Positions 48,885 through 51,594 of a DNA stretch of 64,000 nucleotides are shown here, piece after piece (position 1 is the stretch's first letter; the number at the start of each line of letters is the position of its first letter). This stretch comes from an uncultured Dehalococcoidia bacterium (GTDB taxonomy: Bacteria; Chloroflexota; Dehalococcoidia; SM23-28-2; RBG-16-64-32), in NCBI GenBank assembly GCA_964558415.1, contig CAZLDI010000002.1:10712-74711 (forward strand). The letters run 5' to 3'. Made by a program: the position numbers and the translations under genes. The notes under the pieces are model-generated. The model had not been told where the DNA came from. It saw only the letters and a list, made by a program, of their open reading frames with translations, and ran no database searches.

Positions 48885-49955
48885 CTACTGTACGATCCCA
48901 ACCAGCTTTACCTCGAAGATCAGAGTCGCGTTCGGCGGCACCTTAGTCCCGAATCCCTCCTCGCCATAGGCCAGAGCGGGCGGGATAATCAGCTTGCGCA
49001 GAGTGCCCACTCTCATGCTGCGTATGCCGTCATCAAAGCCGCGGATCTCGGAATCTGAACCCAGGATGAACTCGTACGGAGCTGCCGTCGGCTTGTCCGG
49101 ATCAACCGTCTGGTCGAAGACTCTTCCATCTTCGAATGTCCCAGTGTAGTGCACCGACACCCTCTGTCCGTCTCGTGGGAATGGTCCGAATCCCGGCTCG
49201 ATGTCGACATACTTCAGCCCGTTGGGCAGAGTGATCTCCTCGCCGGTGCGGACAATCTCCAGTAGTTCAACCTCCATGGTCGTCTGGACGTCCGGTGGTA
49301 TGGCGGGGAGGTGCGGATCGCCGGTAGCGGACTGTGGTGGAATCGTCAGCAGCCGCTTCCCCCCGGCACGCATAGTCGAGACGCCTTCCTGAAGGCTCGG
49401 TAACACCTGCGGCGTGCCAAGCTCGAAGAAGAACGGCTCCTCTGGTACGTCGTACGATTCATCGAACACTGTCCCGTCAAGCAGCGTGCCCCGATAGTGT
49501 AGTACCACGTAGTTCCCTGGGCGGGGTGGGTCTCCGTCACCCTGTTTGATGTCCTGGTAGCTCAGCCCGCTTGCCAGTGTCACGATAGACTGCGGGTCGT
49601 CGTCCAGCAACACCGCCAAGAGGACCACGACCGCGGCCCCCACTGCTACCACGCCGGCGGTGATGAGCCCCAACGGCGCCAGTGGAATGGTCCGCGACGA
49701 CCGAGCCATTGTGGGTTCGTCAGTAGGAACCACGGCTGTGATGTTGTGGGTCAGGTCGTATTCCGCTCGTCGGACGGGGTCATCTAGCAGGTCAAACGCC
49801 TGATCCAGCTCGTGCAGGCGTTCGGGAAACAGAGGCTCCGCGTTCAGATCCGGCTGGTACTCCTGCGCCAGGCGCTCATATGCCGATTCAATTTCAGCGC
49901 GCGGCGCCCCAGGCCTCACGCCCAGCACAGCGTAGTAGTCCATATGGCTGGTCAC
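48885..49955 (-). CDS. J-domain (QPD) - TM - tandem FKBP PPIase fusion
   Basis: DYYAVLGV...EYQPD...RRAEYD; TM; two FKBP domains (HYRGTL..G.VFD; HYTGTF..G.VFD...LAYG...[12 protein letters not shown]). Confidence 0.88.
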   Translation of the reverse strand: MTSHMDYYAVLGVRPGAPRAEIESAYERLAQEYQPDLNAEPLFPERLHELDQAFDLLDDPVRRAEYDLTHNITAVVPTDEPTMARSSRTIPLAPLGLITAGVVAVGAAVVVLLAVLLDDDPQSIVTLASGLSYQDIKQGDGDPPRPGNYVVLHYRGTLLDGTVFDESYDVPEEPFFFELGTPQVLPSLQEGVSTMRAGGKRLLTIPPQSATGDPHLPAIPPDVQTTMEVELLEIVRTGEEITLPNGLKYVDIEPGFGPFPRDGQRVSVHYTGTFEDGRVFDQTVDPDKPTAAPYEFILGSDSEIRGFDDGIRSMRVGTLRKLIIPPALAYGEEGFGTKVPPNATLIFEVKLVGIVQ

Positions 49956-49958
49956 GCC

Positions 49959-50768
49959 TTAACGCACCTCCAGAAGGTCGATATCGAAGATTAACGTGGC
50001 GTTGGGAGGAATTCCCGTGCGTCCTTCTGCCCCATATGCCAGATGCGGAGGAACAATGAGACGCCTCGTCCCCCCGACCTGCATCGTCTGGATGCCTTCG
50101 ACCCAGCCGGCGATCAAGTCTTCCAGGACAAATTCCACAGGTTGGCCTCTGTCGATCGAGCTGTCAAACTTCGTGCCACCGTCCTGCAGCCACCCCGTGT
50201 AGTCCACGCGAACGGTCTGCTCAGGCGTTGGTGATGCTCCGGTACCGATGACGATGTCTATGTATTGAAGCCCGCTCGCGGTCGTTACCGGCTCGGCGGT
50301 AAGTTCGGGAGGTGTTGCTGGTGCCGTCACCGATGGTTCAGGGGGGATTGTCGCGGTTGCCGGAATCGGGGTCATGAGACTTGACACGTTTGCATCTTCG
50401 CCGTCGTCGAACGCCGAGATCGTTATCAGTGCCGCCAACACCGCCAACGTGATAGCCACCGCGCCGCCCGCCAGCGCATAGGGGCTGAAGATGAAGCTAC
50501 TCGCCGCGCCCCAACCCACGGCGCTGCGGGTCGGCGGTCGGTCCGGATTCGGGGATCGGCGTGCAGCATCGTAGGCGGCTCGCCGGTGAGGGTCCCGTAG
50601 CGTCGCGTATGCCTCGTCCAACTGTCGAAGGCCGTGCGGGTCCGCGGGCTCTGCCTCCTCGTCTGGATGGTGCAAACGCGCCAGACGCTCATAGGCGGCC
50701 GCGATCTCCGATTGTGGCGCGCCCGGGCTGACGGCCAGCACGCCGTAGTAGTCGACGTCGTTGCCCAC
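49959..50768 (-). CDS. J-domain (HPD) - TM - FKBP PPIase fusion
   Basis: DYYGVLAV...LHHPD...EAYATL.DP.RRAAYD; TM; Pro/Thr linker; YTGWL..G.KFDSS..RG...GW.EG...LAYG. Confidence 0.9.
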   Translation of the reverse strand: MGNDVDYYGVLAVSPGAPQSEIAAAYERLARLHHPDEEAEPADPHGLRQLDEAYATLRDPHRRAAYDAARRSPNPDRPPTRSAVGWGAASSFIFSPYALAGGAVAITLAVLAALITISAFDDGEDANVSSLMTPIPATATIPPEPSVTAPATPPELTAEPVTTASGLQYIDIVIGTGASPTPEQTVRVDYTGWLQDGGTKFDSSIDRGQPVEFVLEDLIAGWVEGIQTMQVGGTRRLIVPPHLAYGAEGRTGIPPNATLIFDIDLLEVR

Positions 50769-50772
50769 GCCT

Positions 50773-51594
50773 CTACTTTATCTCCAGAAGCTCGATATCG
50801 AAGATGAGCGTGGCGTTTGGTGGGATACTACCGGAACGGCCTTCGGCGCCGTACGCGAGAGCGCCCGGTATGATCAACCTCCGCGTTCCACCTACCTGCA
50901 TCGTCGAGAGCCCCTCAATCCAGCCCTGGATCACCTCACCGAGCACGAACTCAGTCGGCTCGCCTCTGTCGATCGAGCTGTCAAACTTCGTGCCGCCCTC
51001 CTGGAGCCAGCCGGTGTAATTCACTACAACGGTTTGCTCTACCGTTGGTGAAACGCCACCCGTTCCCGGCGTAACGTCGATATACTGCAGCCCGCTGGCT
51101 GTCGTCGTCGGCTCACCCTCTATCTCCGGTGGCGATAGAGGCCCAGAGGGCGGCGGCGTTTGCCCAACCGGTGTCGGAGTGATCGCGGCAACGCTGACCG
51201 TCGGTTGAGCGACCACGGCGCCGCCATCGTCGTCAAGCAGCGATATCAGCACGAGCGCCGCGACAACCGCGATGATGATGCCGACCGCCGCGCCTGCCAG
51301 CGTGTACGGGCTGGCGAGGAAGTCACCGGTCGCCCTGGCCAGCTTACCGCCGCGCGATCGCGGCTCACCGCGTTCTGCGCGCGCCTGCCCGCGATCGTAC
51401 TCTGAGCGCGTCTTAGGATCGCGAAGAGCGTCGTAGGCGGCGGATATCTCTTGCCAGCGCGTCCCCGCCTTCGGTTTCTTGCTCTGCTCGGGGTCGTACA
51501 GCTTCGAAAGTCTCGCGTAGGCCCGCTGGATCGCCTCCTGGCTCGAGCCCCGGTTCACCTGAAGTATCGCGTAGTGGTCTCTGTGCTTCTCCAC
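50773..51594 (-). CDS. J-domain (DPE) - TM - FKBP PPIase fusion
   Basis: DHYAILQV...KLYDPE...[15 protein letters not shown]; intact FKBP ([25 protein letters not shown]); GAGGAG RBS. Confidence 0.9.

Follow-up and report, generated by a model that had tools for sequence, protein, structure and literature searches.

Three adjacent J-fold/FKBP fusion genes of an uncultured Dehalococcoidia bacterium point to candidate membrane-tethered foldases with mostly HPD-less J-like domains

Introduction

The coordination of cytoplasmic chaperones with the folding of proteins outside the membrane is poorly understood in single-membrane bacteria, and the folding machinery of the Chloroflexota is almost unstudied. 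The window analysed here, i.e. the whole stretch of 64,000 nucleotides from an uncultured Dehalococcoidia bacterium, contains three consecutive genes, each encoding a J-fold domain, one hydrophobic helix and one or two FKBP domains. The question raised by this locus is whether such proteins span the membrane and, if so, whether the domain on the inner side is able to act on DnaK. An earlier note on this DNA had inferred an N-in/C-out topology with a cytoplasmic Hsp70 recruiter joined to a foldase outside, an arrangement that could couple DnaK to export and folding or relay envelope-folding stress.

The locus

The genes, designated g1, g2 and g3, are adjacent ORFs of the minus strand, in the order g1, g2, g3:

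50773-51594, minus strand: g1, 273 aa, 'type A', with a J-like domain (D-P-E), a TM helix, a Pro/Thr-rich linker and one FKBP domain
49959-50768, minus strand: g2, 269 aa, a chimera with an HPD J domain, a TM helix, a linker and an FKBP domain
48885-49955, minus strand: g3, 356 aa, 'type C', with a J-like domain (Q-P-D), a TM helix and two FKBP domains
51629-51634, minus strand: -10-like hexamer TACAAT, read from the sequence, 35 nt upstream of the g1 start

The stop-to-start spacing is 4 nt (aggc) between g1 and g2 and 3 nt (ggc) between g2 and g3, the ORF coordinates and the sequence both agreeing with the tight three-gene array described previously. Concerning the TACAAT box that had been placed upstream of g1, the hexamer is present, but it has no consensus -35 partner and the sigma-70 scan called no promoter at these positions; it is thus only a -10-like hexamer. 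Between g3 and the hydrolase gene that follows it, the scan detected no site resembling a terminator. Both gene junctions are spanned by contigs of a sediment run that may itself be the source of this DNA, and the runs of a second study contain identical pieces of g1, g2 and g3, including one (50241-50616) inside g2. A run labelled as metatranscriptomic, but judged 'probably DNA', gave two 151-nt contigs, on 49166-49443 only.

The J-fold domains

The Pfam DnaJ family (PF00226) matches residues 6-67 of all three proteins over the entire model (positions 1-63 of 63), with E-values of 1.9e-16 (g1), 1.4e-15 (g2) and 5.7e-14 (g3):

51394-51579, minus strand: g1 J-fold domain, residues 6-67, with D34-P35-E36 at 51487-51495
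50568-50753, minus strand: g2 J domain, residues 6-67, with H34-P35-D36 at 50661-50669
49755-49940, minus strand: g3 J-fold domain, residues 6-67, with Q34-P35-D36 at 49848-49856

Each of them can be aligned without a gap to the J domain of 'Chaperone protein DnaJ 2' (PDB 9dyv; E 1.4e-13, 1.8e-13 and 2.6e-14 for g1, g2 and g3, respectively), the HPD of which lies opposite DPE in g1, HPD in g2 and QPD in g3. The AF2 models of g1 (mean pLDDT 84.6) and g3 (mean pLDDT 83.5) both contain the four-helix J fold; in g1 its helices cover residues 7-10, 19-33, 43-58 and 60-74, with block means of 92-97 over residues 11-70, whereas in g3 the block means of the J domain are 89-96. With the whole g1 model as the query, Foldseek gave FKBP structures alone among the 50 matches listed; since it is silent on the J domain, the evidence for the J fold comes from Pfam, phmmer and the helices of the models. 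The complete cover of the Pfam model and the alignments to 9dyv, together with the AF2 helices of g1 and g3, uphold the N-terminal J fold first read in the three genes.

Membrane helix and topology

There is a single hydrophobic segment in each protein, the KD 19-residue maxima of which are 3.04 (g1), 2.41 (g2) and 2.78 (g3):

51235-51309, minus strand: g1 TM helix, residues ~96-120, from the KD19 value of 3.04 and the AF2 helix 96-120
50400-50495, minus strand: g2 hydrophobic/TM segment, residues ~92-123, from the KD19 maximum of 2.41
49605-49670, minus strand: g3 TM helix, residues ~96-117, from the KD19 value of 2.78 and the AF2 helix 96-117

These maxima begin near residue 98-102, the N-termini of g1, g2 and g3 being not hydrophobic. 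The helix is preceded by R/K-rich stretches and followed by DDD in g1, DDGED in g2 and DDD in g3, so that Pfam, hydropathy and sequence all reproduce the noted order of J domain, helix and FKBP, with basic residues before the helix and a run of D after it. The same holds for the family: a hydrophobic segment (KD19 of at least 1.6) lies between the J and FKBP domains in 71/71 distinct proteins, and K+R is higher on the N-side of the helix than on its C-side in 59 of them, equal in 11 and lower in one (means of 2.0 vs 0.28 for K+R, and 1.5 vs 2.8 for D+E).

The predicted arrangement of g1, g2 and g3 as N-in/C-out single-helix membrane proteins, proposed in the earlier note, is well supported by the lone helix, the lack of an N-terminal signal and the charge bias among the 71 family members. 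A same-side or reversed topology was also considered, and was rejected in view of the absence of a signal peptide before the J domain and the steadiness of that bias. The FKBP domains would accordingly to this prediction lie outside the cytoplasmic membrane. As regards the envelope, Omp85 was not found in this genome, which is 95% complete, and both Lgt and LspA are encoded.

The FKBP domains

The Pfam FKBP_C family (PF00254) recognises g1 (E 1.6e-30), g2 (7.4e-31) and, in two stretches, g3 (1.4e-50):

50785-51048, minus strand: g1 FKBP, residues 183-270, with a canonical pocket, from Pfam, Foldseek and alignment
49971-50231, minus strand: g2 FKBP, residues 180-266, with a canonical pocket, from Pfam and phmmer
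49248-49592, minus strand: g3 FKBP 1, residues ~122-236, with the fold kept and the pocket degenerate
48888-49241, minus strand: g3 FKBP 2, residues ~239-356 (best Pfam stretch 260-352), with W replaced by F

The presence of two FKBP domains in the last gene is confirmed by both the two Pfam stretches and the two folds in the AF2 model. Block means of pLDDT lie at 94-98 in the FKBP domain of g1 and at 83-96 in those of g3, except for two blocks at 61 and 71; within g3 FKBP 1 they are 83-95, with block 211-220 at 61. The best Foldseek match of g1 is the Mip-like FKBP from Burkholderia pseudomallei (5klx; E 6.7e-16, 56% identity), the target-normalised TM-scores of its model vs FKBP structures reaching 0.91-0.94, and phmmer against PDB gives 3uqa as the best match for the FKBP domain of g2 (E 5.2e-33).

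The pocket of FKBPs is formed by Tyr, Phe-Asp, Phe, Val/Ile, Trp, Tyr and Phe. According to the alignment of 29 FKBP domains, the W, Y and F of this set are replaced by L, T and M in g3 FKBP 1, unlike in the orthologous first domains, which retain them, and its terminal branch in the FKBP tree is 1.7 long vs a median of 0.19; g3 FKBP 2 has the pocket mostly kept and a branch length of 1.07. Active pockets are predicted for g1, g2 and g3 FKBP 2. The degenerate pocket of g3 FKBP 1 might bind rather than catalyse, which would fit a transmembrane relay, with the outward FKBPs binding unfolded exports and the J-like domain titrating DnaK or a regulator so as to report envelope stress; an inside domain joined by one helix to an outside sensor is the layout of many bitopic signalling proteins. 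Set against the canonical pockets of g1 and g2 and a conserved neighbourhood with no regulator gene, such a relay seems very unlikely.

The closest FKBPs to those of g1 and g2 include a paralogue from the same genome (G000:C1:35145-35558; 72% and 68% identity), which groups with them at an SH-aLRT of 91 and the frame of which bears a lipoprotein-type signal ending with LTLGC, presumably a lipobox. Together with Lgt and LspA and the missing Omp85, this speaks for FKBP domains outside the cytoplasm. The further PPIases of the genome are likewise anchored: of two cyclophilins, one bears a lipobox-like signal and the other a hydrophobic anchor, and a parvulin has a TM segment at its N-terminus. 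They too agree with an outside location, but in their presence a general foldase role of g1-g3 may be redundant.

HPD status and the capacity to act on DnaK

Of the three genes, g2 alone encodes the HPD tripeptide; by the HPD criterion, the domains of g1 and g3 are J-like rather than functional J domains. The 52 distinct J domains of the fusions comprise 41 with D/N-P-x, eight with QPD and three with HPD, and these variants represent conserved subfamilies, type A forming one clade with a support of 94/93 in the J-domain tree (built on 70 columns, with g2 on a long branch of 0.68). Ten type A sequences from 10 genomes share 26 invariant positions, including Y-D-P..S.K..A..R, and in place of HPD this type has the conserved basic motif Y-D-P-x-x-S-K-K-P-R/K-A. 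The third position of the triad is variable (A, E, S, T, D, K, G, Q), i.e. the catalytic Asp is not kept. Being so strongly conserved, the J-like domains must do something specific.

With regard to helix II, its basic face matters for functional J domains, and the H-to-Q change in HPD is a classic inactivating one. The consensus position 26 is occupied by A in g1 and E in both g2 and g3, vs K in the reference; g1 retains three basic residues in helix II, that of g2 is net neutral as counted on the alignments, and residues 18-32 carry an average net charge of -0.8 (type A) or -0.4 (type C). The R26A results given in PMC1906734 show the importance of this face, and H33Q, according to the same source, abolished function in every J-domain chimera tested as well as the binding of BiP. 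With HPD lost, g1 and g3 probably do not stimulate the DnaK ATPase; DnaK binding of some kind may survive, since the loss of HPD is no proof of a full loss. It is thus g2, the only one of the three, that could potentially act on DnaK at the membrane, its competence as an activator being uncertain with a neutral helix II and E at position 26.

The reading of all three proteins as activating co-chaperones has in its favour the three clear J folds, the HPD of g2, the basic residues of helix II in g1, and a genome encoding one DnaK (G000:C20:22355-24142) and two canonical DnaJ genes. It has to be weighed, however, against DPE in g1 and QPD in g3, the H-to-Q change inactivating J domains (PMC1906734), against the rarity of HPD in the family and the variable third residue of type A, and against the presence of type A in 29/42 relatives with type C beside it in five; it therefore appears improbable. 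What is left of the proposed DnaK activation through HPD is the motif of g2, the claim being unsupported for g1 and g3, and HPD coupling as a general feature of the family is likewise not supported, given the three HPD members among 52 and the HPD-less genes found alone in most related genomes.

Distribution and the origin of g2

The type A N-terminal module occurs in 30/43 genomes of one uncultured Dehalococcoidia-type Chloroflexota family, i.e. in 29/42 genomes apart from this one. A type C gene accompanies it in 5/42 of the other family genomes, most of them carrying the HPD-less type alone, and in an even sample of 401 Chloroflexota genomes the fusion was found in this genome only. A candidate for a distant fusion, G159:C76 (query 17-272, 36% identity), was rejected: it has a basic N-terminus, a TM helix and an FKBP domain, but no J domain. 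The conserved neighbours encode a dUTPase, an AAA_33 protein, an alpha/beta hydrolase, DUF2203 and DinB_2; no functional partner was found among them, and they look like plain inherited synteny without a functional clue.

The J domain of g2 is 53% identical to that of g3 vs 34% to that of g1, while its FKBP domain is 77% identical to that of g1 vs 49% to that of g3; in the tree, the former is positioned within the type C clade (96/80) as a sister to P0020 (99/84). By this sequence comparison g2 is chimeric, its J domain resembling type C and its helix, linker and FKBP domain type A. It would be lineage-specific, and an unequal crossover between neighbouring genes of the two types would yield it. 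The triplicate architecture emphasised in the earlier note is thus real in this genome, but peculiar to it—no second triplet exists among the family loci examined—and its middle gene is a chimeric duplicate.

Wherever both types occur, their genes overlap or abut, and one metagenome protein, P0006, carries two such domains in tandem, first one with HPD and then a J-like one with QPD, followed by a TM helix and two FKBPs. Both observations would suit a hetero-oligomer held together in the cytoplasm by its N-terminal domains, the J-like ones of g1 and g3 binding one another as well as the HPD-bearing one of g2, in the manner of Pam16/Pam18, gating DnaK and gathering four FKBPs outside; so would the charge of the loop-helix III segment (residues 33-58), the means of which are weakly positive in type A (+1.0, n=41) and strongly negative in type C (-5.4, n=8) and in HPD members (-5.3, n=3), a complementarity that is suggestive only. 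P0006 is, however, a single cluster, and type A stands alone in most family genomes, so that pairing is not the general mechanism; we consider the hetero-oligomer unlikely. The complex prediction with the alignments of g1 1-128 and g3 1-125 (score 0.00, mark 0.32) speaks neither for nor against pairing.

Comparison with known systems

PrsA from Firmicutes is a membrane-tethered extracytoplasmic PPIase/chaperone. PpiD from Escherichia coli is likewise a membrane-tethered extracytoplasmic foldase (PMC2956729). Both resemble g1-g3 in being PPIase-type chaperones fixed by an N-terminal anchor outside the cytoplasmic membrane for the folding of exported proteins; they are, however, of the parvulin type instead of FKBP, and neither has a J fold, the part facing the cytoplasm being just a short tail or a lipid anchor. 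The FKBP domains themselves are closely related to FkpA and Mip (g2 vs the B. pseudomallei Mip-like protein, E 5.2e-33, and vs FkpA 1q6h, E 6.5e-27; Mip-type FKBPs vs the g1 model, 56-57% identity in Foldseek), which are dimers, either soluble or associated with the outer membrane, that have a cleaved signal and dimerise through a helical N-terminal domain. The NCBIfam models for FkpA/FklB (NF008150, NF008602) score 98-143 bits vs cut-offs of 198-215, matching the FKBP part alone, and those for BamJ (NF053689; 75-86 bits vs a cut-off of 100 for g1-g3) and DjlA (NF006948; E 0.04-0.09, 12-13.5 bits vs 162) also remain below threshold. The outer-membrane BAM setting of BamJ is missing as well, the genome having yielded no Omp85 family match.

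DjlA carries HPD and is without an extracytoplasmic domain. In E. coli, this class C member of the J-domain proteins is anchored in the cytoplasmic membrane and exposes J to the cytoplasm (PMC8215388). Its order is the reverse of that in g1-g3, i.e. TM first and J last. Pairs of a membrane HPD J protein with an HPD-less J-like paralogue are represented by Pam18 and Pam16. These two form a heterodimer. Known also as Tim14 and Tim16, they belong to the mitochondrial import motor (PMC8605242). They are eukaryotic, with J domains on the side from which Hsp70 pulls in the chain being imported, and with no PPIase.

A further parallel is ZipN (Ftn2)/ARC6, in which a J-like domain at the N-terminus, cytoplasmic or stromal, is followed by a single TM helix and, across the membrane, by a C-terminal part; this protein acts in cell division and has a long cytoplasmic region that binds FtsZ, a helix near the C-terminus (~608-630 of 798 residues) and no FKBP. 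According to PMC6391411, the ARC6-type J-like domains are likely Hsp70-independent and the cytoplasmic N-terminus of ZipN binds FtsZ. By analogy, and with the conserved basic motif of type A where HPD would be, the J-like domain might serve for localisation, positioning the foldase at a specific site by binding some partner other than Hsp70 (for instance the divisome, cytoskeleton, ribosome or translocon); as its sequence shares nothing with ZipN except the J fold, this has only a slim chance of being correct in that specific form. It should be noted that it overlaps with the best explanation given below, in which no particular partner is named.

Full-text searches turned up no publication about a fusion of DnaJ with FKBP, although the survey by Barriot et al. 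2020 or supplements could list it, and the word 'FKBP' is absent from the main text of both PMC10410713 and PMC8215388. The former, a large J-domain census, removed sequences without the full HPD, by which families like the J-like/FKBP fusions fall outside its curated set. Within these bounds—the supplements of surveys could still contain it—the view that the architecture was not previously characterised holds, and the J-fold/TM/FKBP fusion appears to be a so far undescribed variant among the folding helpers tethered to membranes, not a proven DnaK-coupled machine.

Proposed role and significance

The account to which we give an even chance as a whole is that of tethered, outward-facing FKBP foldases, the J-fold domains of which are mostly unable to activate DnaK. 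The proteins g1-g3 would be type II bitopic proteins presenting their FKBPs on the outer face of the cytoplasmic membrane in a single-membrane Chloroflexota cell, where these would most likely help exported and membrane proteins to fold on leaving the translocon, the equivalent job being done elsewhere by the tethered PrsA and PpiD and the periplasmic FkpA; this foldase role is our inference. The J-fold domain would stay in the cytoplasm, type A (g1) being the commonest and, in this account, the ancestral form and type C (g3) the second one; the HPD-less modules would represent a non-catalytic docking or assembly domain, and g2 alone, with its HPD, could act on the single DnaK at the membrane.

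A far bolder possibility, for which the prospects appear poor, is an undescribed bitopic 'pseudo-J' family that links cytoplasmic pre-secretory chains, bound to DnaK, the ribosome or the translocon, to folding outside; the HPD-bearing g2 would there complete a J/J-like set that pairs by charge and gates DnaK, as a counterpart of Pam18/Pam16 joined to a PPIase.

If the J-like domains are mere anchors, the finding shrinks to another foldase tether. With its J-fold domain on the inner side and its prolyl isomerase on the outer one, a membrane-spanning protein of this kind is, nevertheless, a natural candidate for coordination across the membrane, and the natural DPx, QPD and HPD variants on one scaffold offer a probe of J-like domains unable to activate Hsp70.

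Organization of the locus

The open reading frames (ORFs), Pfam matches and hydrophobicity profiles bear out three consecutive minus-strand genes, each encoding a fusion of a J-fold domain, a transmembrane (TM) helix and one or two FKBP domains. These genes and the block downstream of them are arranged in the window as follows:

51629-51634, TACAAT hexamer, read from the sequence
50773-51594, minus strand, g1, ORF of 273 aa
49959-50768, minus strand, g2, ORF of 269 aa
48885-49955, minus strand, g3, ORF of 356 aa
47958-48872, minus strand, alpha/beta hydrolase
47473-48033, minus strand, DUF2203
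46983-47489, minus strand, DinB_2

The gaps between the fusion genes measure 4 nt (g1/g2) and 3 nt (g2/g3), and each gene begins with GTG preceded by a Shine-Dalgarno-like purine run. Pfam finds the DnaJ domain at full length in all three proteins (residues 6-67, model positions 1-63 of 63), with E-values of 1.9e-16, 1.4e-15 and 5.7e-14 for g1, g2 and g3, respectively, as well as FKBP_C in each of them, two FKBP stretches being present in g3. Each protein possesses one strongly hydrophobic segment at approximately residues 92-125, preceded by an R/K-rich stretch and followed by an acidic run, while the N-terminus is not hydrophobic; cysteine is absent from all three. By domain content, g1-g3 classify as members of Pfam DnaJ and FKBP_C and, judged from the sequence, the same four-part layout in three tandem genes is no chance pattern. 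Both gene junctions are spanned by contigs of one sediment run, possibly the source of the window's DNA, and identical pieces of g1, g2 and g3 occur in runs of a second study.

The gene order around the fusion locus is conserved—dUTPase, a 551-aa AAA_33 protein, the fusion genes, alpha/beta hydrolase, DUF2203 and DinB_2—with one additional gene on either side of the fusion genes in many relatives. The 551-aa protein (51732-53387, plus strand), divergent from g1, carries an AAA_33 kinase-like domain (E 4.1e-30) at its C-terminus, following about 340 residues with no Pfam match; its position next to the fusion genes is conserved in 11 loci of relatives. The downstream block (46983-48872, minus strand) is also kept in relatives, its listed ORFs overlapping because of upstream alternative starts.

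J-fold domains and the HPD triad

The J domain of 'Chaperone protein DnaJ 2' (PDB 9dyv) gives gapless alignments with the N-termini of g1, g2 and g3, at E-values of 1.4e-13, 1.8e-13 and 2.6e-14, respectively. AlphaFold2 models of g1 and g3, built on family alignments, exhibit four-helix J folds with pLDDT block means of 92-97 (g1, residues 11-70) and 89-96 (g3), continuing into a long helix (residues 96-120 of g1 and 96-117 of g3), then a disordered linker and confidently modelled FKBP folds. The J-fold nature of the N-termini is thus confirmed by Pfam and the 9dyv alignments for g1-g3 and by the models for g1 and g3.

Concerning the H-P-D triad of 9dyv, it is matched by D-P-E in g1, H-P-D in g2 and Q-P-D in g3. 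Changing the H of this motif to Q is the standard way of inactivating a J domain. In one chimera study, it disrupted all J-domain chimeras tested in a DnaK-dependent assay and removed ATP-dependent BiP binding (PMC1906734). By the HPD criterion, g1 and g3 count as J-like and not as functional J-domain proteins. The proposal of the earlier note that all three proteins recruit DnaK is weakened, since the triad stands in g2 and is missing from g1 and g3; its full DnaK-coupling model is now considered unlikely. Consensus position 26, usually basic, is occupied by A in g1 and by E in both g2 and g3 in the alignments with 9dyv, and alanine at this position impaired several of the J-domain chimeras in the same study (PMC1906734). 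Helix II of g2 is net neutral, which leaves its action on DnaK uncertain. On the cytoplasmic side, the J-fold domains of both g1 and g3 would not stimulate DnaK canonically and may represent conserved docking or assembly modules; g2 alone could act on the single DnaK (G000:C20:22355-24142) of G000, the window's own genome.

Conserved subfamilies and the mosaic g2

A search with g2 returned at least 47 matches carrying both PF00226 and PF00254 among the best 120 of 2929. From the search proteins and related loci, 85 proteins with J and FKBP matches to HMMs built from the window's own domains were collected, and the removal of 33 rows with identical J sequences or incomplete J matches left 52 distinct J domains. 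In this set, which is biased by the gathering queries, the triad reads D/N-P-x in 41, Q-P-D in eight and H-P-D in three. In the J-domain tree, based on 70 columns only, the D/N-P-x sequences including g1 (type A) form one clade (support 94/93), and the QPD group including g3 (type C) is intermixed with the few HPD members. Type A has 26 invariant positions (10 sequences from 10 genomes), among them Y-D-P and, following it in the loop replacing HPD, S, K, A and R. In the type C alignment (n = 18), 16 sequences have Q and two have H directly before the invariant P-D.

Protein g2 has a mosaic make-up, with sequence identities of 53% (to g3) and 34% (to g1) in the J domain, 40% (to g1) and 27% (to g3) in the TM region, and 77% (to g1) and 49% (to g3) in the FKBP domain. 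The trees agree, placing its J domain on a long branch within the type C clade (96/80) and its FKBP domain with g1. The series of a type A gene, a gene with a C-type J domain on an A-type body, and a type C gene is just what would be expected from an unequal crossover between misaligned adjoining genes of the two types.

In five other genomes of the family (G013, G018, G440, G004 and G005), a type C gene comes immediately downstream of the type A gene and either overlaps or abuts it. This adjacency is one hint of a J/J-like heteromer resembling Pam18/Pam16, a system sharing the combination of J and J-like domains; further hints are the tandem HPD-QPD protein P0006 and the opposite charges that type A (+1.0) and type C (-5.4) carry over residues 33-58. 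Type A, however, occurs alone in most genomes, and such a heteromer is hardly probable.

Several other proteins carry more than one J domain. In the metagenome protein P0006 (465 aa), the HPD domain comes first and the QPD domain second, ahead of a TM helix and a pair of FKBP domains; P0132, similarly, has QPD and QPH domains ahead of one FKBP. In G000, a 440-aa frame around 17707-17889 of contig C9 encodes a pair of J-like domains that both lack HPD; a long stretch of low complexity and a C-terminal domain come after them. The representative search also gave P0121 (679 aa; six tandem HPD J domains, no TM segment) and P0124 (649 aa; three J domains, a TM segment and TPR repeats), such multi-J proteins being unusual.

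Topology and anchored isomerases

A hydrophobic segment (Kyte-Doolittle 19-residue mean >= 1.6) separates the J and FKBP domains in all 71 distinct family proteins. The K+R count over 20 residues is higher before than after the segment in 59 of the 71, equal in 11 and lower in one. A folded J domain without a signal peptide ahead, together with the positive-inside rule, therefore indicates an N-in/C-out orientation; the topology proposed in the earlier note is thus supported by the charge bias and the lack of a signal peptide, and the rest of the genome agrees. A transmembrane stress relay by proteins so oriented is an improbable alternative.

The FKBP domains of G000 comprise four in the window genes, one in trigger factor and one further domain at G000:C1:35145-35558, which shares 72% identity with the FKBP of g1 and 68% with that of g2 and groups with both in the FKBP tree (SH-aLRT 91). 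Its 406-aa frame consists of a signal, an unassigned N-terminal region, a Pro/Thr-rich linker and the FKBP domain; the signal is of lipoprotein type and ends in LTLGC, which we take to be a lipobox. G000 thus combines the same FKBP domain with three distinct anchors. Lgt and LspA are encoded in G000. A search of this genome, which is 95% complete, gave no Omp85 protein, in agreement with the usually single-membrane envelope of Chloroflexota. The other peptidyl-prolyl isomerases of G000 are also anchored: two cyclophilins, one carrying a lipobox-like signal and one a hydrophobic anchor, and a parvulin whose TM segment is N-terminal.

FKBP domains

In their FKBP domains, g1 and g2 are close to enzymes of the Mip and FKBP12 types (best match of g2, E 5.2e-33; Foldseek match of the g1 model, E 6.7e-16, 56% identity), and the residues presumed to form the pocket are kept in both. 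As for g3, F replaces the pocket W in its second domain, and its first domain has L, T and M vs W, Y and F kept in orthologous first domains; the branches of both are very long (1.7 and 1.07 vs a median of 0.19). Two or three FKBP domains are present in the type A proteins L023, L024, L025, P0010, P0022, P0036, P0088 and P0129, and those within one protein are mostly mutual closest relatives (e.g. in P0010, P0022, P0036, P0088 and L023), which points to repeated internal duplication.

Outside the membrane, the FKBP domains would act on exported proteins as tethered foldases or chaperones. The reading as a whole—tethered foldases outside, J-like docking modules in g1 and g3, and g2 alone possibly acting on DnaK—is given an even chance.

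Taxonomic distribution

The G000 assembly comprises 2.93 Mb in 46 contigs. Type A patterns retrieved 23 loci from the genome collection, all type A loci originating from metagenome-assembled genomes (MAGs). A type A protein is encoded in 19 of them, labelled Chloroflexi, Chloroflexota, Dehalococcoidia or, once, Chloroflexia; 18 of these have J, TM and FKBP, the contig of L017 ending before any FKBP. The remaining four encode unrelated HPD J proteins without FKBP, one being from a Chloroflexota MAG.

Within the window's family, the type A N-terminal module (E <= 1e-14) is present in 30 of 43 genomes and 12 of 17 genera. No fusion was found in 12 genomes that represent five further families of the order; these genomes gave separate DnaJ or FKBP matches only. 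Across the phylum, 401 evenly sampled genomes gave a full-length match in G000 only; the sole other candidate lacks the J domain and is no fusion. No second triplet was seen among the family genomes and loci examined.

Among 1.84 billion cluster representatives, the profile of the type A N-terminus matched 13 proteins at E <= 1e-30. The best 150 matches include 17 J-TM-FKBP proteins according to the window-derived HMMs, and 43 HPD J domains with a TM segment behind them and no FKBP. In five J-TM proteins scanned (triad HPD, DPS or GPD), Pfam assigns no domain beyond the helix. Use of the J-TM cassette is therefore more widespread.

Relation to known systems

Proteins g1-g3 are not members of three known families, scoring below the cut-offs of FkpA/FklB (98-143 vs 198-215 bits), BamJ (75-86 vs 100 bits) and DjlA (12-13.5 vs 162 bits). 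They resemble PpiD and PrsA in tethering logic and DjlA as membrane J proteins; PpiD, PrsA and FkpA act as foldases or chaperones outside the membrane for exported proteins, the role suggested here for the FKBP domains. ZipN/ARC6 shares the layout of J-like domain, helix and outside domain, and a non-Hsp70 localisation role is proposed for its J-like domain (PMC6391411); by analogy, the J-like domains might localise the fusions to a non-Hsp70 partner, but this seems improbable.

Automatic annotation recognises both domains, one relative being named 'FKBP-type peptidyl-prolyl cis-trans isomerase/DnaJ domain'. A full-text literature search found no paper on a DnaJ-FKBP fusion, although Barriot et al. 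(2020) or supplements may list the architecture. The term 'FKBP' is absent from the main text of both a large J-domain census (PMC10410713), which states that sequences without a full HPD were removed, and a review (PMC8215388). The J-TM-FKBP architecture is narrow in distribution and assembled from known parts. Its interest lies in the coupling of a conserved pseudo-J domain to a proposed foldase outside the membrane, and in the natural DPx, QPD and HPD variants that adjoin each other.
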